The notes: generated from the letters alone by a model not told the origin. Shown: positions 36,445-52,087, numbered from the stretch's first letter. The stretch: DNA of 64,000 nt from an uncultured Candidatus Saccharibacteria bacterium (GCA_964646515.1 CAZYES010000001.1:7582-71581), one strand, 5' to 3'. Program-made: numbers and translations.

Positions 36445-36951
36445 ATGTCGCAAATTATTGAAAGTAGTGTCATGCAATATCCATATCTCCCAATAGGGAG
36501 GGCAATACAATATGTGCCAGCTAGCAATCGATTCATGGTTGAAGCCACACGGCTCCGAAATGAATGTTCGACTGATATCCACCATCCAACTGGCGCTGTT
36601 GTTGTTAAAGATGGCAAGATTATTGGTCGGGGAGCGAATCAATCGTCAATTAAGAGTAAAAAGTTGTTGGCCTTCCATAGGGATAAGTTTTGCATGAGGC
36701 GTTTTTTGAAGGTTTCTTCTGGTCATAAGTATTGGCTATGTCCTGGATGCGCATCATCCAAGCATCATGCCGAAGCGAGGGCAGTCAGAGATGCTCTAAA
36801 AACAAATAAATTATTAGTTGCCGGTGCCGACTTATATCTCTGTGGCCACTGGTGGTGCTGTAAGCCGTGTTGGGATGTTATGATAGGGGCGGGTATCAGA
36901 AATGTTTATTTGATTAATGATGCCAAGATGATGTTTGAGTTGAAAAGATGA
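36445..36951 (+). CDS. dCMP/cytidine deaminase family zinc enzyme
   Basis: HAEARAV and CKPCWDVMIGAGI zinc-binding motifs. Confidence 0.8.
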   Translation: MSQIIESSVMQYPYLPIGRAIQYVPASNRFMVEATRLRNECSTDIHHPTGAVVVKDGKIIGRGANQSSIKSKKLLAFHRDKFCMRRFLKVSSGHKYWLCPGCASSKHHAEARAVRDALKTNKLLVAGADLYLCGHWWCCKPCWDVMIGAGIRNVYLINDAKMMFELKR

Positions 36952-37001
36952 TTGGCGATTCGAAACATCGTTAGCGGACCGAGTAACCGTTAGTAAAAAT
37001 C

Positions 37002-37655
37002 ATGAGTCGCGGGATAAAAAACAAAACAAAGTTTATTGCCATAGAAGGGGGAGAGGGCTCTGGAAAGTCCTCTCTTCTTATTGCGCTCAAAGAAGTTTTG
37101 GGAAACTCGATTGTCTTGACTCGAGAACCTGGGGGTTCGCCATATGCGGAAGCCATACGTATGGCTACGCTCAAGAATCCTCTGGCCAAAACCGCGCCAG
37201 CTGAGACGACACTTTGTCTCATGTTTGCGGCTCGATTTGATAATACAGTTAATATGATAGTACCAGCTTTAAAGTCTGGATTGCCTGTAATAGCTGACCG
37301 TTTTGACGCTTCCTCTTATGCTTATAATGTTATAGCGCAATCGGACGGCGCGCTTGAAGATGTTTTTTGGAATTTACGAGAGAGATTGGCATCCGTTCCA
37401 GATCTTTATGTTTTTGTTGATGTTGATCCGGAGGAAGGTATTCGTCGAGCATATTCACGCAACCAGTCATTGCTCAAAGATCAGCAGTATGACCACTTCG
37501 ATGATCGCGAGATAATATTTCACAAAAAAGTTAGAAGTGGATATGTAAAATTTCTCAAAAAAGTACCACATGTGATTATCGATGCCAATCGTCCTTTTGA
37601 TATGGTAAAGAGGGATTTTATCTTGGAAATCAAAAAACAGTTGAAGATGTCCTGA
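37002..37655 (+). CDS. tmk: thymidylate kinase
   Basis: FIAIEGGEGSGKSS P-loop and TREPGGS motif. Confidence 0.9.
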   Translation: MSRGIKNKTKFIAIEGGEGSGKSSLLIALKEVLGNSIVLTREPGGSPYAEAIRMATLKNPLAKTAPAETTLCLMFAARFDNTVNMIVPALKSGLPVIADRFDASSYAYNVIAQSDGALEDVFWNLRERLASVPDLYVFVDVDPEEGIRRAYSRNQSLLKDQQYDHFDDREIIFHKKVRSGYVKFLKKVPHVIIDANRPFDMVKRDFILEIKKQLKMS

Positions 37656-37725
37656 TTTCCATTAGGAAATGTTTGACTTCCATAGTCATGGTAGATCTTT
37701 ACTCTTTTTGTGTTAGGATTTACTT

Positions 37726-38943
37726 ATGAAAGATACACAATTAAAAAGACTTATAGATGCGGAGAAAAAGCGTCAGAAAAAAGTAGTCAATTTGATAGCT
37801 TCTGAAAATTACGTATCTAAAGATGTTTTGAGTGCACTTGGTTCGGAATTGACCAACAAATATGCCGAAGGATATTCTGGCAAAAGATACTATGGTGGCA
37901 ATGAGATCGTTGACAAGATCGAGGATTTATGTAAAGACAGGGCATTGGAATTGTTTGGTTTGGACAAAAATGAATGGCATGTCAATGTCCAGCCATTGTC
38001 TGGATCACCAGCCAATCTTGCCGTCTATACAGCTTTGATACCACAGGGAGGAAAGATTATGGGGATGTCATTGGATCATGGTGGTCATCTCACTCATGGT
38101 CACAAAGTTTCCGCCACTGGCAAGTTTTGGGTACAAGTTCCTTACGGATTGGATAGGACTACAGAAGTTTTGAACTATGATCAACTTCGTGATAAGGCAA
38201 TGTTTGAAAGACCGGCTATTATCGTTGCTGGTTATACTGCATATCCTAGAATTATTGACTGGGCCAGGATGAGAGAAATAGTTGATGTTGCAAACAATAT
38301 AGGTACCAAGTCCAATAGCCCACTTCTAATGGTAGACATGTCTCACATTGCTGGGTTGGTCGCTGGTAATGTATATCCCTCGCCTTTTCCTTATGCTGAT
38401 ATTGTTACCACTACGACCCACAAAACACTTCGTGGTCCGCGTGCGGCATTGATTTTTGTGAAAAAAGACGCGCGTGAGCTTGACAAGAAAATCGATAAAG
38501 CAGTTTTTCCTGGTTTACAGGGTGGACCACATATCAACCAAATAGCCGGAGTTGCGGTGGCGTTGAGGGAAGCCAAGATGCCCTCATTCAAGAGGTATGC
38601 TTCGCAAGTAGTGAAGAATGCCGCAATCTTATCTGAAGAACTGCGCACTCGTGGCTGGCGTCTGATTTCTGGTGGAACAGATTCACACCTAGTTTTGGTT
38701 GATACTTGGAACGATGGAAAGAAAAATGATCATGGCTCAGGCGGTGTCTCTGGTAAAGAAGCTAGCGATAGATTGGAAAGAGAGGGGATTATTGTTAATA
38801 AGAACGCTATACCATTCGATTCGAGACCGCCAGCTGATCCTTCGGGAATAAGATTGGGTACGGCAGCCGAGACAACTAGGGGGAAAAAAGAGAAAGATTT
38901 CAAAAAAATCGCAGAGAGAATCGATAAGATTTTGAAAAAATAA
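37726..38943 (+). CDS. glyA: serine hydroxymethyltransferase
   Basis: LIASENYVSKDVL, and the PLP Lys in TTTHKTLRGPR. Confidence 0.95.
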   Translation: MKDTQLKRLIDAEKKRQKKVVNLIASENYVSKDVLSALGSELTNKYAEGYSGKRYYGGNEIVDKIEDLCKDRALELFGLDKNEWHVNVQPLSGSPANLAVYTALIPQGGKIMGMSLDHGGHLTHGHKVSATGKFWVQVPYGLDRTTEVLNYDQLRDKAMFERPAIIVAGYTAYPRIIDWARMREIVDVANNIGTKSNSPLLMVDMSHIAGLVAGNVYPSPFPYADIVTTTTHKTLRGPRAALIFVKKDARELDKKIDKAVFPGLQGGPHINQIAGVAVALREAKMPSFKRYASQVVKNAAILSEELRTRGWRLISGGTDSHLVLVDTWNDGKKNDHGSGGVSGKEASDRLEREGIIVNKNAIPFDSRPPADPSGIRLGTAAETTRGKKEKDFKKIAERIDKILKK

Positions 38944-38986
38944 AAAGTGCGGAAAGGTCAGAGCCTGAGCTCTAACTATCCCGCAC
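38942..38986 (-). terminator. intrinsic terminator oriented for a minus-strand transcript (A-run / compound hairpin on plus strand)
   Basis: AAAAA-GTGCGG...(inner AGAGC/GCTCT hairpin)...CCGCAC. On the minus strand this reads hairpin then UUUUU. Confidence 0.55.
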
Positions 38987-39460
38987 AATGTAGTCTATAT
39001 CTCCAGGTGAGCCGAAACGAGTGGCTTTTGTAACGTTAGCCGGCAGTACTCTCGGAATCGAGTCAGGGTGGAAAAAAGGAAGGATGCCGTAGAATTGCCA
39101 TGTGGACCTATGGCGTAGACGCAAATGAACGATGGAGGAACCGATCTTTCTCTACGGAGAGGAGTCACTACATACTCGCTCTAGACTCTTCTTACTTTTG
39201 CATTTTCAAGCATCAAGTAGAAAAGAGACGACATGATTGGGACTGGAGCCACATTACCTCAATGTGTAGTCCTTTGACCTTCTTTTATCATGTTGAAGTG
39301 CGTCATCTGTTGTTTAGCGTGATCTATTTTGAGCTTTTTGTCAAGGGTTTTAATTTGCTACGTTGGTAAAATCGTGTTACTGTGAGAGGAGACTGATACA
39401 ACCACATCGAATTAGAAAGGATATTGTATTAAATGGATTTATACGAAGGCTTGCGCCTTC

Positions 39461-39988
39461 TTGCTCACAATATTTGCTTTTGTCCGTCTGGGCGGAACAT
39501 TATATTTAGAAAAAATTGTTGTAGCCCCATACTATTGGGTATACTTCCCGCACTGCATCAACACAGATGGTTTATTGATGGCCATCCCATTATTGTATGT
39601 AGAACAATTGGCGTTTTCCGTATTACTTTTGCTGTTCTACGACTTTATTGGGATTGACATCATTGGATTGGCTCACATCAAACACAAGATGTCTGGTAAG
39701 GGAGAGAAAATGAAGTTGCGCTTTCCTAGGTTTAGCAAGTTTCTCGGTAATCACAAGAATAGCGCCAAGGTAGTCAAGTTTTCTTTCTTGTCTTGGCAAC
39801 TTATCGCTTTTCTTGTCTTACTATGTATGCGTGTTGATGGCAAGAAAGGTCCGCGAGCCAAAGAATTCGCCATGTTATGCGGTAGCGTTATCATATCCAC
39901 CGCATGGTGGACACTTTTTTCGTTCTGGCTGTATAAGCCATCTTTGATCTTTATAAAGTCAATGGCTGATTACATAAAATTACATTAG
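39461..39988 (+). CDS. hypothetical small membrane protein (3 predicted TM segments)
   Basis: Only the hydrophobicity pattern supports it, so the call is weak. Confidence 0.3.
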   Translation: MLTIFAFVRLGGTLYLEKIVVAPYYWVYFPHCINTDGLLMAIPLLYVEQLAFSVLLLLFYDFIGIDIIGLAHIKHKMSGKGEKMKLRFPRFSKFLGNHKNSAKVVKFSFLSWQLIAFLVLLCMRVDGKKGPRAKEFAMLCGSVIISTAWWTLFSFWLYKPSLIFIKSMADYIKLH

Positions 39989-40086
39989 TAATTATTCGCA
40001 AAGCGTCTTCGTTTATCGTTGGCGCTTTTTATATTGGTTATGGCCACAATACTCGCTATTTTTCATTTTCTTGATACAATAAATTC

Positions 40087-41868
40087 ATGAAGGAAGAACT
40101 TATCAGTTTATTGAAGAGTGCCACAATCAGTTGTGGTATTCACGATACTTCTATCAAGATCGATTACCCAGAAAATCCAGACCATGGTGATTTTTCGACG
40201 AATGTTGCTATGATTAACGCCAAAAAACTGGGAACTTCGCCGAAAGATTTGGCAGACAAAATTATTGGTGAATTTAATAATCATTTACCTGATTTTGTTC
40301 AAAGCGTGGACGTTGCTGGTCCGGGTTTTATCAATTTTTTTGTGAAAGACGCAGAATTTGCCAGAGAAATATTGAAGATAAACAGTTCGATGAAAGACCC
40401 CTCATTTTCTTATGGTAGATTGAACGCCAGTGTTGGAGAAAAAATAATGGTGGAATACACGGACCCAAATACATTCAAGGTTTTTCATATTGGCCATTTG
40501 ATGTCAAATGCTATTGGAGAGTCCATTGTCAGATTGGCCGAATATTCTGGAGCGAAAATGATCAGATTATGTTATTCATCAGACATAGGTTTGCATATTG
40601 CCAAGGCGGTTTGGGCACTGCAAAAACATTTCGATGAAATGCCCAGTGATTCGGCCTCTATCCAGAGCAAAACTGAATTTTTAGGAAAAATGTATGTAGA
40701 AGGAGTCAAAAAGTATGACGAAGACGAAGATACAAAAATGGAAATAGATATTCTCAATAAGGTTATTTATGAGAGATCTGATCCTACGGTGATTGGACTC
40801 TATGAAAAAGGTAGACGATGGAGCCTAGAACATTTCGAAATGCTGTATAAAACATTGGGAACTTCGTTTGATGATATGATTTTTGAAAGCGACATGGCGC
40901 CAATCGGTCTAGAGATCGTTCGGGAATATATGAAAAAAGGCGTGTTTGAAGAGAGTCAAAATGCTGTAGTCTTCAGTGGTGAGAAGTTTGGATTGCATAC
41001 CAGAGTATTCGTGAACTCCAGAGGTATACCGACTTATGAAGCCAAAGATATCGGCCTGAACGTGACGAAATTTAAAAAATACCCAGATGCTTCGCAGTCG
41101 GTCATCATAACGGCCAATGAGCAAGATGATTATTTCAAGGTACTTATCAAGGTCTTGTCTCTAATTGATGAGAAAAATGGTTCGAAGACCAGGCATATCG
41201 GTCATGGAATGATGAGATTTATTGACGGGAAGATGTCATCACGCACCGGCAACGTGATTACGGCCGAGTCACTTTTTTCTGATATAAAAGAGATAGTTTC
41301 AGAGAAGATTGCTGACAGAAAATTTACCAAAGAAGAGGCAGATGAGATTTCTGATATTATCGTTGTTGGGGCCATCAAATATACGATCTTGAGACAATCA
41401 ATCGGTAGTGATGTGGCGTTCGACTCTGCCACCTCAGTCTCGTTTGAAGGAGACTCTGGTCCATATTTGCAGTATTCAGCAGTGAGGGCACGATCGATTA
41501 TCGAAAAGGCGAGAGAGGAGGGGATGATAGGGGCGCAAAAATCAGATACCGAATTTTTAGGAGCCAAGAATTTCAGAGAGGGAGATATATTATCGATAAA
41601 AATCGCAGAGAAAGTCGGAATGTTAGAGAAACTGATTGTCAGGTTTCCTCATGTTGTCGAAAGGTCTAGAGTTGAGTATGCGCCTCAGAATGTCGCCAAT
41701 TATTTGACATCTCTGGCTGGCGCCTTCAACAATTTTTATGCAACGCAGACGATTGTCGACAGGAGGGATGAGTTGTCGCCTTATTATTTGGCGCTAGTGA
41801 GGACGTTTTTGGAGACCATGACCAATGGCTTATGGTTATTGGGGATCAAGGTGCCAGATAAGATGTGA
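40087..41868 (+). CDS. argS: arginyl-tRNA synthetase
   Basis: HIGH-like FHIGHLMSNAIGESI, a DALR anticodon-binding C-terminus, and a terminal Met. Confidence 0.9.
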   Translation: MKEELISLLKSATISCGIHDTSIKIDYPENPDHGDFSTNVAMINAKKLGTSPKDLADKIIGEFNNHLPDFVQSVDVAGPGFINFFVKDAEFAREILKINSSMKDPSFSYGRLNASVGEKIMVEYTDPNTFKVFHIGHLMSNAIGESIVRLAEYSGAKMIRLCYSSDIGLHIAKAVWALQKHFDEMPSDSASIQSKTEFLGKMYVEGVKKYDEDEDTKMEIDILNKVIYERSDPTVIGLYEKGRRWSLEHFEMLYKTLGTSFDDMIFESDMAPIGLEIVREYMKKGVFEESQNAVVFSGEKFGLHTRVFVNSRGIPTYEAKDIGLNVTKFKKYPDASQSVIITANEQDDYFKVLIKVLSLIDEKNGSKTRHIGHGMMRFIDGKMSSRTGNVITAESLFSDIKEIVSEKIADRKFTKEEADEISDIIVVGAIKYTILRQSIGSDVAFDSATSVSFEGDSGPYLQYSAVRARSIIEKAREEGMIGAQKSDTEFLGAKNFREGDILSIKIAEKVGMLEKLIVRFPHVVERSRVEYAPQNVANYLTSLAGAFNNFYATQTIVDRRDELSPYYLALVRTFLETMTNGLWLLGIKVPDKM

Positions 41869-41899
41869 TTCTAGATAATAAAATGTTATAACTACTTCA

Positions 41900-44800
41900 A
41901 TGAATCCAGTTAATGTGGAGAAAAATAATATAGAGGATAAGAAAATTGCAAAGACATCTCACGCCGAACGCGAAGAGCGCATTTTGGCTTTTTGGAAAGA
42001 GAATCATATTTTCGAAAAGTCTTTGACCAAACCGTCGCCAAAAGGTGAATACATTTTTTATGATGGTCCACCATTCGCCAACGGTTTACCTCATTATGGC
42101 CATCTACTTGCCGGGATTATCAAAGATGTTGTGCCAAGATTCAAGACTATGCGAGGTTATCATGTTCCAAGACGCTGGGGTTGGGATTGCCACGGTCTAC
42201 CAGTGGAAAATTTGGTTGAAAAAGAGCTTGGGCTGAAAAGTAAAAAAGACATTGTCAATTACGGTATTGAAAAATTCAATGAGGTAGCGCGCCAGAGTGT
42301 TATGCGTTATGCCGATGAGTGGAGAACGATAGTTCCGCGCTTGGGACGTTTTATCGATATGGATTCTTCCACAAACTCAGGCAAGGGGCATGATTATCGT
42401 ACCATGGACGCCTCTTACACGGAGACGGTCTGGTGGATATTCAAGCGGTTACATGACAAACATTTGATTTACGAAGGTTTCAAGTCTATGAATCTGTGTC
42501 CACGGTGCGAGACGACACTTTCGAACTTTGAGGTGGCACAGGGATACAAAGACATCACGGATATTTCCGTTACGGTTAAATTTAGAGTTAAAGATGAAAA
42601 ATTTGGGGGCAAAGACAGTTCAGACACATTCTTGTTGGCGTGGACAACGACTCCGTGGACTTTGCCAGGTAATGTTGCTCTGGCAGTTAATTCAAAAATT
42701 GATTATATAAAAGTTAGAATTGCCGAACAGGGCACTTTTATTCTTGCAAAGGACAGATTGTCGATCTTAAAAGATGCCAAATATGAAGTTGTCGAGACGA
42801 TTCGAGGTACAGCACTTATTGGAATAGGTTACGAACCATTATTTGACTACTATTCAAATAATACAAATCTTAAAGATCGTGCCAATGGTTGGAAAGTATA
42901 TGGCGCAGATTTTGTGACTACAGAAGACGGGACAGGTATCGTTCATATTGCTCCAGCTTTTGGGGCCGATGATTATATGTTATTGCAAAGATATAAACTT
43001 CCATTTGTCCAACACGTTACGACTGACGGCAAGTTCAAGAAAGAGGTTTCTGATTTCTCGGGAATGAGCGTGAAACCAATCGATACTAAAGATGAAAAAG
43101 ATGCTCATCAAAAAGCAGATGTAGAGATTATCAAATGGTTGGCGCACCACGATCTTTTATTTGCAAAAGAGAAATTGATCCACTCATATCCGCACTGTTG
43201 GAGATGCGATACGCCACTTTTGAATTATGCCTCTTCTTCATGGTTCGTGAAAGTGACAGACTTAAAAGGTAAATTAGTGGCGGAGAATAAGAAAGTTACT
43301 TGGGTACCGCCAGAGGTTGGTGAGGGTAGATTTGGTAATTGGCTCGAGGGGGCTCGTGATTGGGCGATCTCTAGAAGCAGGTTTTGGGGAGCACCAATAC
43401 CAGTGTGGAGAGAGGAATATCTGGAAAAAGATGGTAAAAACCTGTCGGCAGGTAAAACCAATTATAGAGCTGATGGTGATACGGAAAAGATTCACGTTGT
43501 TGGTTCAGTCGAAGATTTGAAAAAATACAGTAAAGCCAAAAATACCTATTATGTAATGAGACATGGTGAAGCAGAGAATAATGAAAAAGGTGTGCTCGAT
43601 GGTTCTGTATCGTCAGTTTTCAGATTGACCGATAAAGGCAGACAGCAAGTTGCCGATTCAGCTAAAAATTTCAAGAAATTACACGAAGATGTACTTATTG
43701 ATCTAGTCATTGTGTCGCCAATACTACGGACCCGCGAAACAGCCGACATTTTCATAGAGAACTTTGGGCTTACCAAAGATAAGATAGTTATTGACGAGCG
43801 TATCCGAGAGTACGATCCTGGCATTCTTGATGGTCACAAAATATCCGAATTAAAAGATATCATCAATGGCCAGGATAGGTTCACGTGGAAACCAGACGGT
43901 GGAGAGAATTATCAAGATATCAAAAAACGCATGGGAGATTTCCTGTATGAAATGGAAAACAAATATTCCAATAAATCAATCTTGATCGTTACGCACGAGA
44001 CACCGGCCTTACTCCTTTTTTCTTCGGCTTACGGACTGACTCTCTCAGATACCAAGTCTTTGCGCCCTTCCGGAGATTTCATCGCCAATGCAGAGATTCG
44101 GAAATTGGATTTTACGCCCCTACCGCACAATGATAGGCATGAACTCGATTTGCATCGACCATTTATCGATGATCTTCAGTTGAGGACGGACGAAGGTAAT
44201 AGGTTGGTTAGAGTGCCAGATGTATTCGATTGTTGGTTCGAATCGGGAGCCATGCCATATGCGTCAAATCATTATCCTTTTGAGAATGTTGGCTTTGAGC
44301 CAAAGCCCGGACCATTTAAAAAACCCAGAGGTTATCCTGCGGATTTTATTGCCGAAGGGCTAGATCAGACCAGAGGTTGGTTTTATTCGATGATGGTTTT
44401 GGGTGTAGCACTTTTTGGTAAGACTCCTTATAAAAAAGTCATCGTAAATGGGCTGGTTTTGGCGGAAGATGGTCAGAAGATGTCCAAACGCAAACAGAAT
44501 TATCCAGATCCGATGCGATTGGTAGACAAATATGGCGCAGATTCTCTCAGATTTTATCTTCTTTCATCTCCAGTGGTACATGGCGAGGATCTTTGCTTTA
44601 GCGAGAGGGGAGTTGACGAAGTCACAAAGAAGATAGTCAATCGATTGCTCAACGTAGTCTCATTTTACGAAATGTATGTCGGCGGGCTGAAGGCTCGTGA
44701 TATATTATCTAAAGTCAGCTCTAGTAATGTTCTTGACTTGTGGATATTGAACAGACTCAACGAGACTATCTCCATAGTAACAAAAGCGCTTGAAGCAGGT

Positions 44801-45580
44801 GAGCTAGATAAAGCAGTGAGGCCATTTATGGATTTTACAGATGATCTTTCCACTTGGTATATTCGACGCTCTCGTGACAGATTCAAGGCTCTTGCCGACA
44901 AGACAGCAAAAGTCGATTATCCTAATGATGAGGACAAAGACTCGGCACTTGCTACCACTTGTTTTGTGCTACTGACAACCGCAAAAATACTAGCTCCATT
45001 TATGCCTTTTTTGTCGGAAGAAATCTATTCGAGAGTTGGTGGTGATCTAGAGTCGGTACATCTCGAAGAATGGCCGACGGCGAATGCGGTCGATTCAACA
45101 TCGATCGGCTCCATGAATATAGTACGAGGCATTTCTTCCAAGGCGTTAGAGGCGCGCATGAAGGTGAAGATAAATGTGAGACAACCACTTGCAAAATTGA
45201 AAGTCAGAGACACAAATCTAAAGGATCTGGGCGCATCGCTTATTGGTCTGATCAAAGACGAAGTAAATATCAAAGAAGTATCTTTTGATTCCACTATTGT
45301 GAATGATATAGAATTGGACACAGTTATTACCCCTGAATTGAAGGAAGAGGGCATAGTCCGTGAGCTGATTCGTATTATCCAAGATTTGCGTAAGAAAAAA
45401 GGATTGACCATGAATGATAGGGTGGTGCTTTTCGTCGGCACCGATAATGTGGGAAAGGATCTGGTTGAAAAGAATCGTTCGAAGTTGATGGCCACGACGT
45501 CGCTAAGAGAGATAAAATATGACGGCACCGGTTCTGAAGAATTTAGGATTGGTGACTTGGTCTTTAGGCTATCTATATAA
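41900..45580 (+). CDS. ileS: isoleucyl-tRNA synthetase (eukaryote-like type) carrying an inserted histidine-phosphatase domain
   Basis: GPPFANGLPHYGH, the CP1 editing region, WAISRSRFWGAPIP, DVFDCWFESG, KMSKRKQN. Residues ~550-750 (nt ~43547-44140) contain RHGEAENN, VIVSPILRTRETA and LIVTHET motifs of the PGAM/CobC/SixA histidine-phosphatase superfamily. Confidence 0.9.
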   Translation: MNPVNVEKNNIEDKKIAKTSHAEREERILAFWKENHIFEKSLTKPSPKGEYIFYDGPPFANGLPHYGHLLAGIIKDVVPRFKTMRGYHVPRRWGWDCHGLPVENLVEKELGLKSKKDIVNYGIEKFNEVARQSVMRYADEWRTIVPRLGRFIDMDSSTNSGKGHDYRTMDASYTETVWWIFKRLHDKHLIYEGFKSMNLCPRCETTLSNFEVAQGYKDITDISVTVKFRVKDEKFGGKDSSDTFLLAWTTTPWTLPGNVALAVNSKIDYIKVRIAEQGTFILAKDRLSILKDAKYEVVETIRGTALIGIGYEPLFDYYSNNTNLKDRANGWKVYGADFVTTEDGTGIVHIAPAFGADDYMLLQRYKLPFVQHVTTDGKFKKEVSDFSGMSVKPIDTKDEKDAHQKADVEIIKWLAHHDLLFAKEKLIHSYPHCWRCDTPLLNYASSSWFVKVTDLKGKLVAENKKVTWVPPEVGEGRFGNWLEGARDWAISRSRFWGAPIPVWREEYLEKDGKNLSAGKTNYRADGDTEKIHVVGSVEDLKKYSKAKNTYYVMRHGEAENNEKGVLDGSVSSVFRLTDKGRQQVADSAKNFKKLHEDVLIDLVIVSPILRTRETADIFIENFGLTKDKIVIDERIREYDPGILDGHKISELKDIINGQDRFTWKPDGGENYQDIKKRMGDFLYEMENKYSNKSILIVTHETPALLLFSSAYGLTLSDTKSLRPSGDFIANAEIRKLDFTPLPHNDRHELDLHRPFIDDLQLRTDEGNRLVRVPDVFDCWFESGAMPYASNHYPFENVGFEPKPGPFKKPRGYPADFIAEGLDQTRGWFYSMMVLGVALFGKTPYKKVIVNGLVLAEDGQKMSKRKQNYPDPMRLVDKYGADSLRFYLLSSPVVHGEDLCFSERGVDEVTKKIVNRLLNVVSFYEMYVGGLKARDILSKVSSSNVLDLWILNRLNETISIVTKALEAGELDKAVRPFMDFTDDLSTWYIRRSRDRFKALADKTAKVDYPNDEDKDSALATTCFVLLTTAKILAPFMPFLSEEIYSRVGGDLESVHLEEWPTANAVDSTSIGSMNIVRGISSKALEARMKVKINVRQPLAKLKVRDTNLKDLGASLIGLIKDEVNIKEVSFDSTIVNDIELDTVITPELKEEGIVRELIRIIQDLRKKKGLTMNDRVVLFVGTDNVGKDLVEKNRSKLMATTSLREIKYDGTGSEEFRIGDLVFRLSI

Positions 45581-46213
45581 ATGTACTCGATTGTTACCAC
45601 TTACGGATTTGTCATCGATTCGCGACCACATGGCGAGGCGGGTCGAATATTGTCGATATTTACGCGTGATCTCGGGCTCGTCTTTGTAACTGCGCAAGGC
45701 ATACGTCTAGAAAAGTCGAAACTCCGTTATTATACACAGGAGTATTCATTTGGACGATATTCATTGGTAAGAGGAAAGGAATTTTGGCGATTAACAAGTG
45801 CGCAAGATGTTGATTCAAGGATAAAAATGTCTGTCTCCCCGGTCTCTCTTGCCGAGACAACGTGGGCTATAAAATACGTTAACCACAGACAAGAATTGAT
45901 TGCGCGTATCGCTTTATTATTGAAGAGGTTACTTCATGGCGAAGAGGCGCATGCAGAATTATTCGAGTGTGTCTATTCTTGTGCCGGATTTTTGTATGAG
46001 CAACCACATTTTACGGCTGAACGGTTAGAAACTTTCGAGTCGGTTGTAGTCTTGAGGATTCTACGTTTACTTGGTTACATAGGCGATGATCCATTACTCG
46101 GCGAAAAAATGCAATCGTCAAATATCACAGTCAAATTGTTGGATGACTTGGCAATGAAAAGAGTGTTGATCAATCAGCACATCAACAAGGCCCTGAGAGA
46201 ATCTCATCTATGA
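45581..46213 (+). CDS. recO: DNA repair protein RecO-like
   Basis: An N-terminal OB-fold pattern (GFVIDSRPHGEAGRILSIFTRDLGLVFVTAQG) and helical C-terminus. Start codon overlaps the ileS stop codon by 1 nt. Confidence 0.5.
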   Translation: MYSIVTTYGFVIDSRPHGEAGRILSIFTRDLGLVFVTAQGIRLEKSKLRYYTQEYSFGRYSLVRGKEFWRLTSAQDVDSRIKMSVSPVSLAETTWAIKYVNHRQELIARIALLLKRLLHGEEAHAELFECVYSCAGFLYEQPHFTAERLETFESVVVLRILRLLGYIGDDPLLGEKMQSSNITVKLLDDLAMKRVLINQHINKALRESHL

Positions 46214-46245
46214 TTGGGAATAAGCAATTTCACTAAATAAGTTTT

Positions 46246-48204
46246 TTGTCATATAATATATTGGTGTCTACGTCAGATGATAAAAGTCATATCGATGAAT
46301 TGAAGAGTTCGCTATATTCGCGTACGGCGCCAGACGTTCGTACTAGAAGGAAACTCCGATTTTCCGAGGATACCCCCGAGATAAAGACCGATTGGGACCA
46401 TCCTGGAGAAATGGTAGAACCACCAGTAGAACTAAATAAAAAACACAAAGATCATTCCATGTCATTTTTTACCAAGTTACTTATCGGCTCTGTAGTTTTC
46501 TGTCTGATTGCCGTTGGGGTTGGCGCTTATCTGTTTTTCAATGGTTCCAATCTCATTTCTGCTGACAATATTGATATAAATATAGACGGTCCAGTATCTA
46601 TCTCAGGCGGAACCCCTGTTTCTTTCGATATTTCAATAATAAATAAAAACAACGTCAATTTGCAGTTGGTAGACATGACGGTTGATTTTCCTGTTGGCAC
46701 TACAGATCCGAATGATACCTCGGAGATTTTGCAGAATTACACTAAACTTATTGGTAATTTGCCAGCAGGCGGTTCCGCGCGCGAGACCATAAAGGCGATC
46801 ATCTTTGGTGAAGAAAATCTACAAAAAGAGATTACCGTGACGTTGACATACGGAGTAGAAGGTTCTACATCAGTTTTTACCAAGAGACGTACCTATGAAG
46901 TTCTTATCAATTCATCGCCAATCAACGTCTCAGTTTCTTCATTCAAGGAAATAACTTCTGGGCAAGAGTTTGATCTCAAAGTAAGTCTGAAGTCCAATTC
47001 TCAAGAAGCCTTGAGAAATGTTATGCTCAAAGCTTCATATCCCTTTGGTTATAGCTTTATTTCGGCAAATTTACAGCCACTTGTTGGAGATGCCATCTGG
47101 AAGGTTGGTGACATTCCCGCTGGAGGTGAACGCATCATAATTATTCATGGAAAAATTTCTGGAGAAGATAACGACACTCGAGTATTTCATTTTAGCGTCG
47201 GGGCACAAAGTATTAGTGACCCAAAAAACATTGGTACACAGTATATGGCGGTAGATCATAGTATGACTGTGGAAAAACCTTTTATATCTCTCAGCATATC
47301 AGTTGACAATGAAAGAGGTACCGAGGATTATGTCGGCCAATTTGGCAGATCATTGCGCGTAACTTTGACATGGTTTAACAATCTATCTAACTCTGTATCC
47401 AATGTGAATATCAGTACGAAATTGTCTGGCTCCGCTTATGACAAGACAACAGTTTTTCCTGATTTGGGTTTTTTCAATTCTGCTAATGATGAAATCGTTT
47501 GGAGCCAGAAAACCAATCCTGATTTGGCCTCGATCGGTGCTGGCGGTAGTGGAACGGTTTCTTTTACTATTACTCCCAAAAACAAAGGCACATCAATAAA
47601 CTTGATTACAAATCCGGTCATCACTCTGACCGCCAACGTGTCTGGGAATCGCACGCAAGAATCTGATGTTCCACGCTCGATTTCTTCGGCGGTCACTCGT
47701 AATATTCTTATCTCTTCAGACGTCTCTCTTTCTGGGCGAATTGTACGAACCATTGGCCCCTTCTTGAATACTGGACCGATCCCGCCAAAAGCTGAGAGAT
47801 CGACTACTTATACAGTAGTTTGGGATGTTGACAACACTTCCAATGCACTGAGCGGAGCACAAGTCACTGCTACTTTACCGTCGTATGTTAAATGGCAAAA
47901 CATGGTTAGTCCTAATACTGAAGATGTGACTTATGATCAGAACAGTGGCTTGGTCACATGGAAGATAGGGAACGTGGATGCTCACACCCTAAGTTCTTTG
48001 CGGAGAAAGGAAGTGGCTTTTCAAGTATCGTTTACGCCTAGTATCAATCAGGTCGGGCAATTCCCAACTATAGTCAATCAGGCTACTCTGGTTGCTACTG
48101 ACAGTTTCACCAATACCGCGCTTCAAAGCTCGCAAGGTTATTTGACCACTAGATTTAGCACAGACCCAGGATATAAGAGTGGTCAGGACATGGTCACGAA
48201 ATAA
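46246..48204 (+). CDS. hypothetical membrane-anchored protein with large beta-rich ectodomain
   Basis: A ~75-aa cytoplasmic N-terminus, one TM (FFTKLLIGSVVFCLIAVGVGAYLFF), then ~550 aa of repetitive Ig-like/CARDB-like sequence. The listed ORF starts at TTG; the true start is uncertain. Confidence 0.5.
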   Translation: MSYNILVSTSDDKSHIDELKSSLYSRTAPDVRTRRKLRFSEDTPEIKTDWDHPGEMVEPPVELNKKHKDHSMSFFTKLLIGSVVFCLIAVGVGAYLFFNGSNLISADNIDINIDGPVSISGGTPVSFDISIINKNNVNLQLVDMTVDFPVGTTDPNDTSEILQNYTKLIGNLPAGGSARETIKAIIFGEENLQKEITVTLTYGVEGSTSVFTKRRTYEVLINSSPINVSVSSFKEITSGQEFDLKVSLKSNSQEALRNVMLKASYPFGYSFISANLQPLVGDAIWKVGDIPAGGERIIIIHGKISGEDNDTRVFHFSVGAQSISDPKNIGTQYMAVDHSMTVEKPFISLSISVDNERGTEDYVGQFGRSLRVTLTWFNNLSNSVSNVNISTKLSGSAYDKTTVFPDLGFFNSANDEIVWSQKTNPDLASIGAGGSGTVSFTITPKNKGTSINLITNPVITLTANVSGNRTQESDVPRSISSAVTRNILISSDVSLSGRIVRTIGPFLNTGPIPPKAERSTTYTVVWDVDNTSNALSGAQVTATLPSYVKWQNMVSPNTEDVTYDQNSGLVTWKIGNVDAHTLSSLRRKEVAFQVSFTPSINQVGQFPTIVNQATLVATDSFTNTALQSSQGYLTTRFSTDPGYKSGQDMVTK

Positions 48205-48292
48205 TAAATAACAAAGAAGCGTGCTTTTAAATGTCTACTCTTGGTGGATTTTATCATTTGTTGGCTTTGTACATTTGAGGTAATATACTGTC

Positions 48293-49609
48293 ATGAATAA
48301 AAAGGAAAACATTATGGAGTCTATTACCTCTTTGGCCAAGAGAAGAGGTTTTATTTACCCGAGTTTTGAGATTTATGGCGGTTTGGCTGGTTTTTTCGAT
48401 TATGGTCCATATGGATTGGCCCTCAAGAATAATGTCAAGAATATCTGGTGGAAACAGTTTGTAACAGATCGTGAGGATATTTATGGTATCGATGGGGCTA
48501 TTGTCACAAAAAGAGATGTATTACAAGCCAGTGGACACGCTAGAGGATTTGCCGATATGCTCACAGAGTGTGAAAAATGCAAGCGTCGTTTTCGTCTAGA
48601 TCATCTTTCGGACAGGGTGAAATGTCCGGAGTGCGGAGGACGATTGGGCGAAGCTAGGCAGTTTTACATGATGCTTGAGACTCATATTGGCGCAGTAGAC
48701 GACGAATCTTCTCTGGCATATCTGCGTCCGGAGACTGCACAAAGTATTTTTACCAATTTTAAGAACATTATCGATTCTTTTCATCCTAAATTGCCTTTTG
48801 GCATTGCTCAGATCGGTAAGGCCTTTCGTAATGAGATTGCGCCGAGAGATTTTTTGTTTCGTATTCGAGAGATAGAACAAATGGAGGTCGAATACTTCGC
48901 AGAATCACAATCATGGCAAGAGCATTTTGCGGTATGGCAGAATGAAATAATGAAGTTTATCCATTCAGTAGGAATTGATCCAAACAAGGTCTCTCAGCTC
49001 GAGATTGCCGATGCTGACCGTGCTCATTATTCGAAACGCACCGTGGATTTTGAGTTTGATTTCCCATTTGGCAAAAAAGAACTTTACGGACTAGCGTATA
49101 GGACAGATTATGATCTTAACAATCATATGAAGGCTAGTGGCGTGGACATGTCGTACCTAGACGCAGAGACAAATAAAAAAATTATTGCACACGTGATCGA
49201 ACCGTCTCTTGGGGTCGATAGAACAATATTGGCTATTCTTTGCAGTGTATACACAGAAGATAATCTTGGCGGAGAAAAACGAATTCTTCTGAAGTTTCCA
49301 GCAAAGGTCGCACCAGTGAAAGTGGCAGTTTTTCCACTTCTTCGAAACAAACCACAATTGGTTGAAAAAGCAAGGGAAATTTACAAGATGATTAAAGGTA
49401 TTTTCCCAGCGACAGTTTTTGATGATAATGGAAATATCGGCAAACGCTACCGCCGACAAGATGAAATTGGCACCCCATTTTGTGTGACTGTCGATTTTGA
49501 GACGATTGAAAAAGGCGCAGGTGTCACTATTCGTGATCGTGATTCTGGTAGACAAGAGAGAGTGGAAGAAAAAGATCTGGTTCAATTTCTTGAACAAAAG
49601 CTTGGGTAG
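48293..49609 (+). CDS. glyS: glycyl-tRNA synthetase (alpha2 dimeric, archaeal/eukaryote-like type)
   Basis: YGGLAGFFDYGPYG, CxxC...CxxC zinc ribbon, and class II motif FRNEIAPRDFLFRIREIEQMEVEYF. Confidence 0.9.
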   Translation: MNKKENIMESITSLAKRRGFIYPSFEIYGGLAGFFDYGPYGLALKNNVKNIWWKQFVTDREDIYGIDGAIVTKRDVLQASGHARGFADMLTECEKCKRRFRLDHLSDRVKCPECGGRLGEARQFYMMLETHIGAVDDESSLAYLRPETAQSIFTNFKNIIDSFHPKLPFGIAQIGKAFRNEIAPRDFLFRIREIEQMEVEYFAESQSWQEHFAVWQNEIMKFIHSVGIDPNKVSQLEIADADRAHYSKRTVDFEFDFPFGKKELYGLAYRTDYDLNNHMKASGVDMSYLDAETNKKIIAHVIEPSLGVDRTILAILCSVYTEDNLGGEKRILLKFPAKVAPVKVAVFPLLRNKPQLVEKAREIYKMIKGIFPATVFDDNGNIGKRYRRQDEIGTPFCVTVDFETIEKGAGVTIRDRDSGRQERVEEKDLVQFLEQKLG

Positions 49610-49664
49610 TCGGTCATAGTGCATCTCATGTTCAATTTCTGGATGGTATGTTACATTTAGAAAC

Positions 49665-50936
49665 ATGAAATTTAATAGAGTAACTCTCTCAAATGGAGTA
49701 CGTGTCATTACGGTGCCAATGACTGACAATCCATCGGTGACTATTCTTGTATTAGTTGGCGCTGGTTCTAAATATGAGACTAAAGAAATAAATGGTCTTT
49801 CTCATTTTCTAGAACACATGGTTTTTAAGGGCACTACCAATAGACCAAAGACCATAGACATTTCTAGAGAATTGGACTCGATTGGTGCCCAGTACAATGC
49901 CTTTACGGGGCAAGAACTTACGGGTTATTATGCCAAATCAGATGCCCGTCATCTAGACAAGATTATCGACGTTGTCTCTGATATGTATTTGAACCCGCTT
50001 TTTGACGCCAAGGAAATAGAAAAAGAAAAAGGGGTAATTGTTGAGGAAATTCGTATGTACCAAGACCTGCCTCAGCGGCGCGTGGACAATGTACTTATGT
50101 CACTTGTTTATGGCGATCAGCCTGCTGGTTGGGATGTGGCGGGCACAGAGGATAATGTTCGCTCATTCAATCGTGAACAACTTATTGATTATCGCAGTAA
50201 ACATTATGTGAGTAGGTCAACCACGGTCGTCATTGCCGGTTCGTTTGATGAAGAAAAAACAATCGAGGCTATCGGAAAGGCTTTTTTGAAAGTGCCCAAA
50301 GCAAATGCGGGGAGTAAGTTGGCTGTAACCGAATCACAGAGCGCTCCACAGATAAAAACCGAATTTAAAGAAACTGATCAGACCCACATTGTCATTGGTC
50401 TCAGAACTTTTTCTGTATTTGATGATAGGATTCCGGCTATGCATGTGCTCTCAACTATTTTGGGGAAGGGAATGAGCTCAAGACTTTTTTCTAAAATGAG
50501 AGACGACCTTGGGATCTGTTATTACATCAAGACAGAACACAGTCCGCTCACCGATCATGGGATATTGACGATCTCCGCTGGTCTTGATAATTCTAGGGTT
50601 GAAGAGGGAGTCAGACAGATCGTCGTTGAGTGCGAAAAGATCAAGGACGAATTGGTCAATGATGTGGAGCTTAAAAAGGCCAAAGATTATATTTCTGGCA
50701 CGACAATGCTCGAATTGGAGACTTCAGAAGCACGCGCCGAGTACTGCGGTCTCCAAGAGATCTTAAAGCGCGACATCGAGACCCCAGAAGAGATTATTGC
50801 CAAGATTAACAAAGTTACTGCTGGAGATGTGCGAAAGTTAGCTAGAGAGGTTTTTGTTAATGAGGGGTTGAATATGGCGATAATTGGTAAATTGAAAAAC
50901 GGCGATGGTCTCAAAGATTGTTTTAGGTTTGGTTAA
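49665..50936 (+). CDS. M16-family zinc peptidase (insulinase-like)
   Basis: Inverted zincin motif HFLEHMVFKGT. Confidence 0.8.
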   Translation: MKFNRVTLSNGVRVITVPMTDNPSVTILVLVGAGSKYETKEINGLSHFLEHMVFKGTTNRPKTIDISRELDSIGAQYNAFTGQELTGYYAKSDARHLDKIIDVVSDMYLNPLFDAKEIEKEKGVIVEEIRMYQDLPQRRVDNVLMSLVYGDQPAGWDVAGTEDNVRSFNREQLIDYRSKHYVSRSTTVVIAGSFDEEKTIEAIGKAFLKVPKANAGSKLAVTESQSAPQIKTEFKETDQTHIVIGLRTFSVFDDRIPAMHVLSTILGKGMSSRLFSKMRDDLGICYYIKTEHSPLTDHGILTISAGLDNSRVEEGVRQIVVECEKIKDELVNDVELKKAKDYISGTTMLELETSEARAEYCGLQEILKRDIETPEEIIAKINKVTAGDVRKLAREVFVNEGLNMAIIGKLKNGDGLKDCFRFG

Positions 50937-50989
50937 TGACAAGTCATGATTTTGTTGTGCATCGCTAATAATAGCGGTATACTTTTGTC

Positions 50990-52087
50990 ATGAATGAGTC
51001 AAAAAACACCCATGTAGTAGTCAATACGGGTACTCTCATACGTTTTTTTCTCATTACAGTTTTGCTTTTGGTGTTGTACTACATCTCTGATGTCATCCTA
51101 GTGATTGTCGCTGCCATAGTCATCGCTTCGGCCATTGAACCCTTGATACGCAGATTGAAGAGGCGAAAGATACATCGGATTGTTAGCGTCATAGTCATAT
51201 ATGTACTTCTGGCACTTGCCCTTGCAGGGATTCTAATATTTTTCTTACCATTGGTCGTAAATGATATGGTGACTTTTCTTAATGGTCTACCGCATACGAT
51301 TTCACTGGGCAATCTCTGGAGTCCCTTATCTTCTGTTGGCGGTGACACTGTAGCCACTTCCCAGTCATTGTCAGGGAATACAATCTCCATATATGATTTT
51401 GTTGATGAGCTCAAATCTCTCATTGCTGGTACTAGTGCCGAAGTCTTCAAGACAGCTAGTGTGCTCTTTGGTGGTGTTCTTAGCTTTCTTCTGATTGTGA
51501 TTCTCTCATTTTATTTGGCGGTTCAAGAAGACGGAGTCGGTGATTTTTTACGCATTGTGGCTCCAGTCAAGCATCATGACTATGTTGTCGATCTTTGGGC
51601 TCGTTCTCAGCGTAAGATGGCCCTGTGGTTGCAAGGTCAGATTGTTTTGGGAATAATTGTGGGTATTTTGGTCTACATTGTCTTGTTGATTGTTGGTATC
51701 CCTCACGCGCTTTTGCTTGCTGTGCTTGCCGGTCTGTTCGAGATCATACCTGTTTTTGGACCAATCATTTCAGCTATTCCGGCAGTTGCTACGGCTTTTG
51801 CAGAACGTGGCCTAGGTATAGGTCTTTTGTTGGTTGGTCTGTATATTGTCATACAGCAACTCGAGGGTCAGCTTTTTTATCCTTTGGTAGTAAAGAAAGT
51901 TGTCGGCATTTCTCCTATTGTAGTTATCCTTGCTCTTGTTATTGGTGCCAAGCTCGCCGGTGTCTTGGGGGCATTGATTGCTGTACCGCTGTCGGCTGCT
52001 TTGATGGAGTATATTCATGATATTGAAAAGTATAAAAATGCAGAAAGAGCCGAGAGGGCCGTGATCAATAAGAAAACAAATGCATAA
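50990..52087 (+). CDS. AI-2E family transporter (PerM/UPF0118)
   Basis: Polytopic membrane protein of AI-2E-family size and topology. Confidence 0.5.
   Translation: MNESKNTHVVVNTGTLIRFFLITVLLLVLYYISDVILVIVAAIVIASAIEPLIRRLKRRKIHRIVSVIVIYVLLALALAGILIFFLPLVVNDMVTFLNGLPHTISLGNLWSPLSSVGGDTVATSQSLSGNTISIYDFVDELKSLIAGTSAEVFKTASVLFGGVLSFLLIVILSFYLAVQEDGVGDFLRIVAPVKHHDYVVDLWARSQRKMALWLQGQIVLGIIVGILVYIVLLIVGIPHALLLAVLAGLFEIIPVFGPIISAIPAVATAFAERGLGIGLLLVGLYIVIQQLEGQLFYPLVVKKVVGISPIVVILALVIGAKLAGVLGALIAVPLSAALMEYIHDIEKYKNAERAERAVINKKTNA

Follow-up and report, generated by a model that had tools for sequence, protein, structure and literature searches.

The DNA analysed here, a stretch of 64,000 nucleotides from an uncultured Candidatus Saccharibacteria bacterium (GCA_964646515.1 CAZYES010000001.1:7582-71581; this whole stretch is referred to below as the window), carries a gene for isoleucyl-tRNA synthetase (IleRS), ileS, in which a histidine phosphatase (HP) domain is nested. 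The gene is a single uninterrupted open reading frame (ORF) encoding a protein of 1226 amino acids (aa) and lies between argS and a recO-like gene (Table 1). The initial annotation of the window had described a synthetase of this length with an in-frame phosphatase insertion, which agrees with the continuous frame, with the Pfam domains of the product, i.e. tRNA-synt_1 (E = 5.6e-132), Anticodon_1, DUF5915 and His_Phos_1, and with its alignment to a solved IleRS structure (see below).

Judging from its conserved motifs and domains, the host enzyme appears to be an otherwise normal type-2 (eukaryote-like) IleRS, in which the HIGH, KMSKR and editing motifs as well as the anticodon-binding domain are intact. 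The whole protein scores 868.2 bits against the NCBIfam ileS model TIGR00392 (cutoff 621.4), and the best structural matches of the host are IleRS2 and eukaryotic IleRS. Both class I signatures, PHYGH and KMSKR, are conserved in homologues. Connective polypeptide 1 (CP1) contains the Thr-rich peptide and the GTG.VH..P..G..D motif of an editing domain, and the editing-domain structures 1wk8 and 1ue0 align to aa 215-432. The C-terminus has no zinc-binding domain and ends in the ARD3/DUF5915-type manner of type-2 enzymes (PF19302).

Among solved structures, the protein is matched best by 8c8u, the IleRS2 of Priestia megaterium (E = 2e-204). The two align up to residue 506 of the query (460 of the chain) and again from residue 746 (483 of the chain); approximately 240 query residues (aa 507-745) stand in place of a linker of about 22 residues in 8c8u, and the comparison with a canonical IleRS that had been suggested earlier thereby delimits the insert. 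The affected subdomain, CP3, corresponds to residues 473-534 of the C. albicans IleRS, where it is located opposite CP2 and forms the connection from there to the second Rossmann-fold half; it folds differently in each solved IleRS and binds zinc in the T. thermophilus enzyme (PMC7191050). In 8c8u and in the T. thermophilus IleRS 1ile, CP3 comprises about 45-60 aa and, in the latter, is zinc-binding, whereas the CP3 of the window has lost all its Cys ligands and hosts a phosphatase of 191 aa together with linkers. In more distant relatives that share the insertion point, two CxxC zinc knuckles flank the insert (CxxC...CxxC). The position of the first of these knuckles is occupied in the window by the loop EYLEKDGKNLSAGKTNYRADGD, with a predicted local distance difference test (pLDDT) of 48-55 (model residues ~491-510), falling below 50 at aa ~517-526 (model residues 500-504 and 506-509), in a structure model that is confident as a whole (pLDDT 90.5, predicted template modelling score, pTM, 0.87). 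The LPHN motif of the C-side linker is missing from CP3 loops without an insert, and the GC content (0.39-0.45) is continuous through the insert region. The nesting of the HP in the variable, peripheral CP3 subdomain of IleRS can be regarded as practically certain, as can the evolutionary relations described below.

All the motifs quoted in the initial annotation were found in the protein: WGAPIP at residue 496, GSVEDLKK at 535, RHGEAENN at 554, SPILRTRETA at 606, IVTHET at 696, LDLHRPF at 749 and DVFDCWFESG at 774. The insert lies where it had been placed, except that the proposed start, nucleotide 43540, is one base ahead of the codon boundary. The excess length had been attributed to one contiguous block, which holds for the main insert; additional residues are found in the 22-aa loop at aa 507-528 and, about nine of them, near aa 156-164.

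Table 1. Features of the ileS locus (nucleotides counted from the first letter of the window; aa, residues of the encoded IleRS)
Feature	Position	Strand	Residues and basis
argS, conserved upstream neighbour	40087..41868	+	Pfam Arg_tRNA_synt_N, tRNA-synt_1d, DALR_1; synteny
ileS, type-2 (eukaryote-like) IleRS with nested phosphatase	41900..45580	+	1226 aa
HIGH signature PHYGH, canonical form	42089..42103	+	aa 64-68; P64, H65, G67 and H68 invariant in a 46-sequence alignment
CP1 editing-domain motifs WTTTPWTLPGN and GTGIVHIAPAFGADD	42641..42973	+	aa 248-258 and aa 344-358; invariant columns in the 46-sequence alignment
WGAPIPVW, start of the CP3 subdomain	43385..43417	+	aa 496-506
22-aa loop EYLEKDGKNLSAGKTNYRADGD, predicted disordered	43418..43483	+	aa 507-528; specific to the window, not in relatives
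N-side CP3 element and junction, ending VVGSVEDLKKYSKAK	43484..43540	+	aa 529-547; GS..ELKK junction conserved
HP domain, branch 1	43541..44113	+	aa 548-738
RHG-motif residues R554 and H555, the latter predicted to be the nucleophile that accepts the phosphate	43559..43564	+	invariant in 85/85 nested and 43/43 free-standing sequences
R610, phosphate-binding Arg of SPxxR	43727..43729	+	invariant in 85/85 nested and 43/43 free-standing sequences
E637, predicted general acid/base	43808..43810	+	E in 85/85 nested sequences; in free-standing ones E 33, D 10
H699, second catalytic His	43994..43996	+	invariant in 85/85 nested and 43/43 free-standing sequences
C-side linker TPLPHNDRHE, only in the nested form	44114..44143	+	aa 739-748; P742 and N744 invariant
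C-side CP3 half and return to the Rossmann fold, LDLHRPFID...DVFDCWFESG	44144..44248	+	aa 749-783
KMSKR signature loop	44477..44491	+	aa 860-864; K860, M861 and K863 invariant in the 46-sequence alignment
Anticodon-binding domain	44735..45193	+	aa 946-1098; Pfam PF08264, E = 1.5e-29
Type-2 C-terminal domain, DUF5915	45308..45574	+	aa 1137-1225; Pfam PF19302, E = 1.5e-16
recO-like gene, conserved downstream neighbour	45581..46213	+	Pfam RecO_N, E = 3.5e-13; synteny

The phosphatase domain

The insert matches the Pfam family His_Phos_1 (PF00300) at aa 551-738 with E = 1.8e-27 and 96.7 bits, well above the gathering cutoff of 21.7, and covers profile positions 2-181 of 194; the catalytic core is present and the fold is the alpha/beta fold of the superfamily. 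This upholds the branch-1 histidine phosphatase identity put forward earlier. Besides the residues listed in Table 1, N561 is shared by all 85 nested sequences, and N548 and Y550 occur in every nested and free-standing HP (100% conservation). The domain evolves somewhat faster than the body of IleRS (mean pairwise identity of 42% versus 51%) with its catalytic set complete. Judged by these residues, the HP seems to be catalytically intact and to have been kept so over deep divergence, and it is apparently an active phosphatase.

The best fold match of the HP is PspA, and the other nearest folds are likewise capped small-molecule phosphatases; the protein phosphatases SixA, PGAM5 and Sts also occur among the matches. 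Identity to PspA (4ij5), PhoE (1h2e), glucosyl-3-phosphoglycerate phosphatase (6s2q), the riboflavin-pathway HFP (9mmh) and CobC (6e4b) amounts to 21-25%. Unlike these small capped enzymes, the HP has a subfamily-specific N-x-Y before the RHG motif and is obligately associated with ileS.

Scores against the models of characterised families all stayed below the respective cutoffs. This was the case for the dPGM models (dPGM_arch, 83.6 versus 225; PRK01295, 28.4 versus 316; PRK14120, 27 versus 366), GpmB (51.8 versus 261), the alpha-ribazole phosphatase CobC (TIGR03162, 61.5 versus 162.9; PRK15004, 46.3 versus 250) and the compact, cap-less phosphohistidine phosphatase SixA (TIGR00249, 40 versus 74.5). 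PspA-type phosphoserine phosphatase was rejected as well (NF045917, 56.1 versus 350; PRK13463, 46.6 versus 277), despite PspA being the best fold match. By sequence, the HP is a member of branch 1 of the histidine phosphatase (phosphoglycerate-mutase-like) superfamily that falls outside all its characterised families.

Nested and free-standing forms in other genomes

One genome per bacterial species was scanned with peptide patterns from the insert and the C-terminal junction, followed by tblastn confirmation. The scan yielded at least 566 stretches with a nested HP in species-representative genomes, so the orthologs with the same insert whose search had been proposed in the initial annotation do exist. 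The best 80 of these stretches all span both junctions, and about 70 of them encode RHG and, approximately 300 residues further on, KMSK in one frame that runs for 1100-1270 aa without a stop; the rest were mostly cut by contig ends or missed by the motif filter. According to their record titles the best 80 belong to Patescibacteria, i.e. Taylor-, Nomura-, Kaiser-, Adler-, Campbell-, Vogel-, Zambryski- and Lloydbacteria and 'Paceibacterota'/'Parcubacteria'; Taylorbacteria are members of the Parcubacteria group (NCBI taxonomy). At the protein level, PF00300 was found together with the IleRS domains in all 120 of the best full-length homologues (57-68% identity), which are named 'class I tRNA ligase family protein' or 'isoleucyl-tRNA synthetase' at their source. 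A search with the insert and its junctions gave other IleRS fragments with the same insert at 33-47% identity, and a HMMER search over 1.84 billion cluster representatives returned 189 representatives at the 50%-identity level with E <= 1e-30, for most of which a single match covers both junctions. In a large part of the Parcubacteria group, ileS usually takes this HP-nested form.

The chance that no real nested domain is involved, and that the architecture reflects a misassembly, a frameshifted gene pair, an intein or a decayed, non-catalytic spacer, is negligible. It could be argued from entries of the type 'histidine phosphatase family protein, partial', which split the gene (P0002, P0004, P0005 and P0009). 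At the loci of two of these (P0002/L086 and P0009/L001), however, every gene is broken into overlapping frames, as is typical of long-read indel errors, whereas about 70 independent genomes have one continuous frame. A chimeric assembly is contradicted by the recurrence of the architecture in hundreds of independent genomes and assemblies. As to an intein, Pfam detects no Hint domain, the insert begins with N-T-Y and has no Cys or Ser at its start, its fold is that of a phosphatase, and the residue following the junction 'HN' is mostly E, D or A (E 18, D 6 and A 4 in relatives, D in the window). The catalytic residues are invariant, and these, as well as the confidence of the structure model, are at odds with a decayed spacer. 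The earlier statements that the insert is neither an intein nor a separate gene hold, the frame in the window being uninterrupted.

The two loci with apparently split genes, L001 (GCA_037975565.1) and L086 (ERZ25039472 contig_37099), have argS, ileS and their neighbours all in short overlapping ORFs, which looks like the result of indel errors in long-read assemblies producing spurious 'split' genes. We also observed that annotation has been transferred in both directions between phosphatase and synthetase entries: the ileS fragments P0004 and P0005 carry the NCBI label 'histidine phosphatase family protein, partial', and the stand-alone phosphatases P0312 (189 aa) and P0387 (202 aa) are labelled 'isoleucyl-tRNA synthetase' by JGI.

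The closest free-standing relatives of the HP (P0007 and P0008, 188 aa) are encoded between argS and ileS, with junctions that are a few bases apart or overlap. The N-terminus of the free form, MKLSNTYFLLRHGE, aligns directly with the nested junction, KAKNTYYVMRHGE. A metagenome scan with patterns internal to the free-standing HP, mapped by tblastn, gave 53 loci; because the search patterns lie within the HP, this set carries no ascertainment bias toward adjacency. The HP is free-standing in 47 of the 53 loci and nested at the same site as in the window in L114, L115, L126 and L127. Downstream of the free HP, ileS was found in 35 of the 36 loci whose downstream sequence extends for 700 nt or more (within 250 nt in 30 of them), and argS lies upstream in 36 of the 38 loci with upstream sequence (within 60 nt in 32). 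The neighbouring ileS is devoid of the insert in 28 of the 29 cases spanning the site. Two near-exclusive gene orders can therefore be distinguished, argS - HP - ileS - recO and argS - ileS::HP - recO, the window displaying the second. The HP is evolutionarily tied to IleRS, being encoded by a gene immediately upstream of ileS and co-transcribed with it, or tethered in a surface loop of the synthetase.

The free-standing family comprises 2,847 proteins at E <= 1e-10, its named members coming from Portnoybacteria and Staskawiczbacteria (both of the Parcubacteria group) and from the 'Patescibacteria group'. Among the 120 best of the 2,847 matches to the free-standing profile, all are single-domain proteins and none is fused to a partner other than IleRS. 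In several loci (L095, L117, L124/L125 and L096) 0.5-3.1 kb of other sequence separates the free HP from ileS. A distant stand-alone histidine phosphatase (P0010 in locus L082; 168 aa, 33% identity), which served as an outgroup, is located away from ileS, next to genes resembling type IV secretion or conjugation genes (PrgI, TraC-like, DUF87/TraG).

Reading the order of anchor motifs among more distant matches disclosed further insertion sites: behind the second zinc knuckle of CP3 (site 1b; P0234), between the helices F(F/L)xTYAxID and LDxWI, before the anticodon-binding domain (site 2; P0272, P0179, P0249 and P0234), and between DCWFESG and ADFIAEGLDQTRGWF (site 3; P0249, P0234, P0264 and P0233). 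IleRS proteins with the HP at other sites also include P0275 and P0280-P0284, and loci L140 and L141 belong here. Several proteins contain two HP domains and P0234 contains three, the last one being cut by the contig end. The HP has thus been re-inserted at three further IleRS loops in rarer lineages, with up to three copies per protein. P0249 represents a cluster of six members of equal length, on contigs of up to 1.06 Mb from several samples, and a 268-kb NCBI contig carries P0272; the chromosomal context is ordinary in both cases. The full catalytic set (R, H, N, R, E, H) is present in all 13 HP copies examined at other sites, which argues against neutral passengers, since these would be expected to decay.

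In a neighbour-joining (NJ) tree of 128 HP sequences, built with no support values, 43 free-standing and 81 Paceibacteria-nested sequences form sister clades, and L114, L115, L126 and L127 fall outside both; in a second NJ tree of a subsample, likewise with no support values, L114 and L126 join the free-standing forms. In the NJ tree of IleRS bodies both states are interleaved on internal branches of 0.005-0.04, and the HP copies at other sites have long branches in a star-like NJ tree. Taken from these trees, the history of insertion and fission would have comprised several events, and we draw nothing finer from them.

One further protein, P0222, combines the HP at site 1 with a Walker-A P-loop domain (GACGAGKT) resembling small kinases at site 3 (aa ~735-905). 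The P-loop domain has a generic AAA_18/AAA_33/Zeta/CPT fold, and APS kinase, shikimate kinase and Pnkp1 are matched in PDB at only E = 0.02-0.06. A kinase-like domain paired with a phosphatase may recall the RNA end-healing enzyme Pnkp and PFK-2/FBPase-2; coming from a single metagenomic protein, this is weak evidence and should be taken as a lead.

In the literature searched, which included a 2026 preprint on IleRS domain evolution, no description of a phosphatase in IleRS was found. This agrees with the initial annotation, whose author knew of no phosphatase embedded in a synthetase; the arrangement is not unique to this genome, however, and the HP domain hits are already public as unremarked annotations, the Pfam domains having been precomputed in public protein collections. 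The nearest curated counterpart in terms of architecture is ileS_w_GNAT (NF040702), an IleRS with an extra catalytic domain that is treated as a distinct architecture. That domain is a GNAT domain, and the protein of the window scores 320 against a cutoff of 1999; no curated model or description equivalent to ileS_w_GNAT was found for a phosphatase-bearing IleRS. The actinobacterial RNase H/acid phosphatase of the M. tuberculosis Rv2228c type (NF005567) resembles the protein of the window in that a CobC-like branch-1 phosphatase is fused to a nucleic-acid enzyme. Among NCBIfam models, NF005567 ranks second for the insert, which at 71.6 bits against a cutoff of 326 is not a member, and the Rv2228c type differs in being an end-to-end fusion with another partner enzyme. 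The histidine phosphatase domain of TFIIIC tau55 (Tfc7; 2yn0) differs from the HP in being eukaryotic and fused N-terminally in a transcription factor.

Possible function of the IleRS-linked phosphatase

Free-standing and nested HP differ in charge. The net charge per 100 aa is +6.8 in the former and -1.3 in the latter, and that of the IleRS bodies of the same loci is +0.5 (free-HP loci) and -0.9 (nested); for the difference between HP and IleRS charge, a Mann-Whitney test uncorrected for phylogeny gives p = 8e-9. Most of the shift falls on three segments, namely the cap subdomain, which contributes +3.5, residues 621-636, with +2.7, and the RHG loop, with +1.9; from the known fold, we take these to form the active-site face. 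The copies nested at other sites are all non-basic. The nested and free-standing pair constitutes a natural experiment on the function of the domain.

It is likely that the HP is functionally coupled to IleRS, because its insertion has been fixed repeatedly though adjacency alone already gives co-expression, because multiple copies stay intact, and because the electrostatics shift systematically on tethering. The initial annotation had suggested a phosphorylated tRNA end, a nucleotide by-product or a regulatory substrate; gene adjacency in sister lineages, repeated insertion and the charge contrast greatly strengthen the evolutionary link to IleRS, and these suggestions as to the substrate are still conjectural. 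That it is an active phosphatase acting on a phosphorylated ligand of IleRS, i.e. a tRNA end or a nucleotide, is a serious possibility, which we advance tentatively as our preferred reading. Our leading guess at the substrate, a blocking 2'/3'-phosphate or pyrophosphate at the acceptor end of tRNA(Ile) that the HP would remove, is doubtful. We also consider it rather unlikely, if attractive, that the HP, nested or co-encoded, serves as a third active site of IleRS, which would repair or 'pre-proofread' the A76 end of tRNA(Ile) before aminoacylation.

The chemistry of the HP can be outlined from the established mechanism of the superfamily. H555 would attack the phosphomonoester to give a phospho-histidine intermediate, the phosphate would be held by R554, R610, N561 and H699, and E637 would protonate the leaving group and then activate water. 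On our leading guess, the substrate would be a tRNA(Ile) that carries a 2'/3'-phosphate or pyrophosphate on the A76 ribose and is unable to accept isoleucine. In the nested form the IleRS body would supply tRNA binding, and the flexible CCA end, already shuttling between the synthetic and editing sites, might also reach the HP as a third hydrolytic site among the connective polypeptides; once dephosphorylated, the tRNA could be charged without leaving the enzyme. A free-standing HP would need an RNA affinity of its own, which would explain its basic active-site face.

In favour of a tRNA end as the substrate counts the position of the HP in the connective-polypeptide region, as is the case for the editing domain. 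The CP1 editing domain of IleRS, ValRS and LeuRS is, like the HP, a hydrolase nested in a Rossmann-fold connective polypeptide, and it forms an extra site that the CCA end can visit. It differs from the HP in its unrelated fold and in hydrolysing aminoacyl esters rather than phosphomonoesters, and CP1 is universal and ancient, whereas the HP is lineage-specific and alternatively a separate gene. There is also precedent in bacteria for tRNAs whose 3' ends have been (pyro)phosphorylated by toxSAS and can no longer be charged (PMC11559606; 10.1101/2021.04.30.441581). Removal of a blocking phosphate from the tRNA 3' end, as proposed for the HP, is carried out by T4 and bacterial Pnkp 3'-phosphatases and by small alarmone hydrolases, which undo toxSAS pyrophosphorylation of the CCA end; this likeness concerns function and is speculative. 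P0222, with its P-loop kinase-like domain and phosphatase, shares the Pnkp likeness. These end-healing and de-blocking enzymes differ from the HP in having HAD, calcineurin-like or HD folds, in being free-standing and in their usual link to toxins or phage conflict. The support for a Pnkp-like role of the HP would be circumstantial, consisting of the linkage to IleRS, the basic face of the free forms and the P-loop domain in P0222.

Several points weigh against an IleRS ligand, and a tRNA end in particular. We know of no branch-1 histidine phosphatase that acts on an RNA end, and the nearest folds are those of capped small-molecule phosphatases. Acidic residues beside the catalytic ones in the nested forms (E559, E613 and E/D700) disfavour binding of an RNA backbone. 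The charge contrast, besides being uncorrected for phylogeny, comes from a free-standing group that is heterogeneous (-2.4 to +16 per 100 aa). It is unclear why such an activity would be needed in IleRS alone and not in the adjacent ArgRS, and adjacency could mechanically favour insertion into ileS without any functional meaning.

The last point leads to the principal alternative, namely that the HP is an ordinary small-molecule phosphomonoesterase (acting on phosphoserine, a sugar phosphate, a nucleotide or a cofactor precursor) unrelated to aminoacylation, whose gene, located beside ileS, was repeatedly captured into permissive loops, so that the HP would merely be co-expressed and carried along, or stabilised, by IleRS. 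We regard this as possible, though doubtful. The nearest folds and sequence families are all capped small-molecule enzymes, the electrostatics of the nested form are typical of such enzymes, and the neighbourhood has a housekeeping, one-carbon/nucleotide character (dCMP deaminase, Tmk and SHMT). Insertion took place in surface loops that are variable or modelled with lower confidence, and the position immediately upstream makes illegitimate recombination into ileS plausible. On the other hand, adjacency already provides co-expression, yet the HP has been fixed in IleRS at four or more positions, and proteins with 2-3 copies retain each of them catalytically intact, whereas redundant passengers should decay. 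The basic active-site face of the free forms is not expected of a metabolite phosphatase either, the HP reaches the cutoff of no characterised equivalog, and in ~97% of loci, spanning deep divergence, it is linked to ileS.

A phosphorylated nucleotide which binds to or inhibits the active site of IleRS, e.g. a 3'-phosphorylated adenine nucleotide or (p)ppApp/(p)ppGpp, might be cleared by the HP, tethering raising the local activity and multiple copies possibly stripping successive phosphates. The capped pocket is like that of phosphatases with nucleotide-like substrates (CobC, the riboflavin HFP and RosC), tethering and multiple copies fit local clearance or stepwise removal, and toxSAS enzymes produce such nucleotides. 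We nevertheless consider this version improbable: to our knowledge, no such nucleotide inhibitor of IleRS has been described and branch-1 phosphatases are not alarmone hydrolases, and the basic face of the free-standing forms is left unexplained. Still more improbable in our opinion is a role of the HP as a protein phosphatase, either maintaining IleRS or a partner in the unphosphorylated state, for instance by reversing the phosphorylation of a Ser in or near the KMSKS loop by a Hip-like kinase toxin, or working as a regulatory switch. Kinase toxins do phosphorylate class I synthetases near KMSKS (HipA acts on GltX and HipT on TrpS), tethering to the target would make sense, and the superfamily includes SixA, PGAM5 and Sts, which are among the fold matches.

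Aminoacyl-tRNA synthetases are among the best-studied enzymes, and their known extra catalytic activity is the editing of mis-acylated products. A whole bacterial radiation of ultra-small symbiotic bacteria with an unrelated second hydrolase in or beside IleRS points to an unrecognised need in isoleucine charging or in the maintenance of tRNA(Ile). With the tRNA end as its substrate, the HP would exemplify a novel type of translational quality control; a third active site of IleRS would mean that synthetases can be linked to substrate repair in a way not known before, perhaps as a permanent defence against toxins that modify tRNA ends, and this repair would have arisen several times by independent insertion into different loops of IleRS. 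If the substrate were a metabolite, an essential enzyme would be serving as a scaffold for another enzyme, and the case would be a warning for the metabolic reconstruction of Patescibacteria, as a phosphatase would be hidden in a gene annotated only as ileS.

Gene neighbourhood and further observations on IleRS

In the window, ileS belongs to a conserved housekeeping cluster at positions 36445-52087. It comprises genes for a dCMP deaminase, thymidylate kinase (Tmk), SHMT and a hypothetical protein, followed by argS, ileS::HP and the recO-like gene, and then genes for a DUF11 surface protein, a class II synthetase (tRNA-synt_2b and HGTP_anticodon), an M16 peptidase and an AI-2E transporter. Much of this gene order is also found in L001. 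The functional clues in the gene neighbourhood of the window are limited to housekeeping genes; ARAGORN detected no tRNA or tmRNA genes in the whole 64 kb, and no Rfam family reached its gathering threshold there.

Two observations concern the catalytic domain of IleRS. The insertion of about nine residues near aa 156-164 mentioned above (SSTNSGKGH, nucleotides ~42365-42391) is present neither in the P. megaterium IleRS2 nor in the consensus of homologues, and the structure model has low confidence at this place (model residues 140-144). In approximately 25 of 57 related IleRS genes, e.g. those of L002, L027, L050, L059 and L140, the HxGH motif is replaced by GxHH (PGIHH, PGMHH, PAIHH, PGLHH or PGVHH), unlike in the window, which retains PHYGH. 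Brkic et al. in 2023 reportedly tied the swapped GxHH motif to mupirocin hyper-resistance in IleRS2, and its frequency in the IleRS of Parcubacteria seems worth attention.

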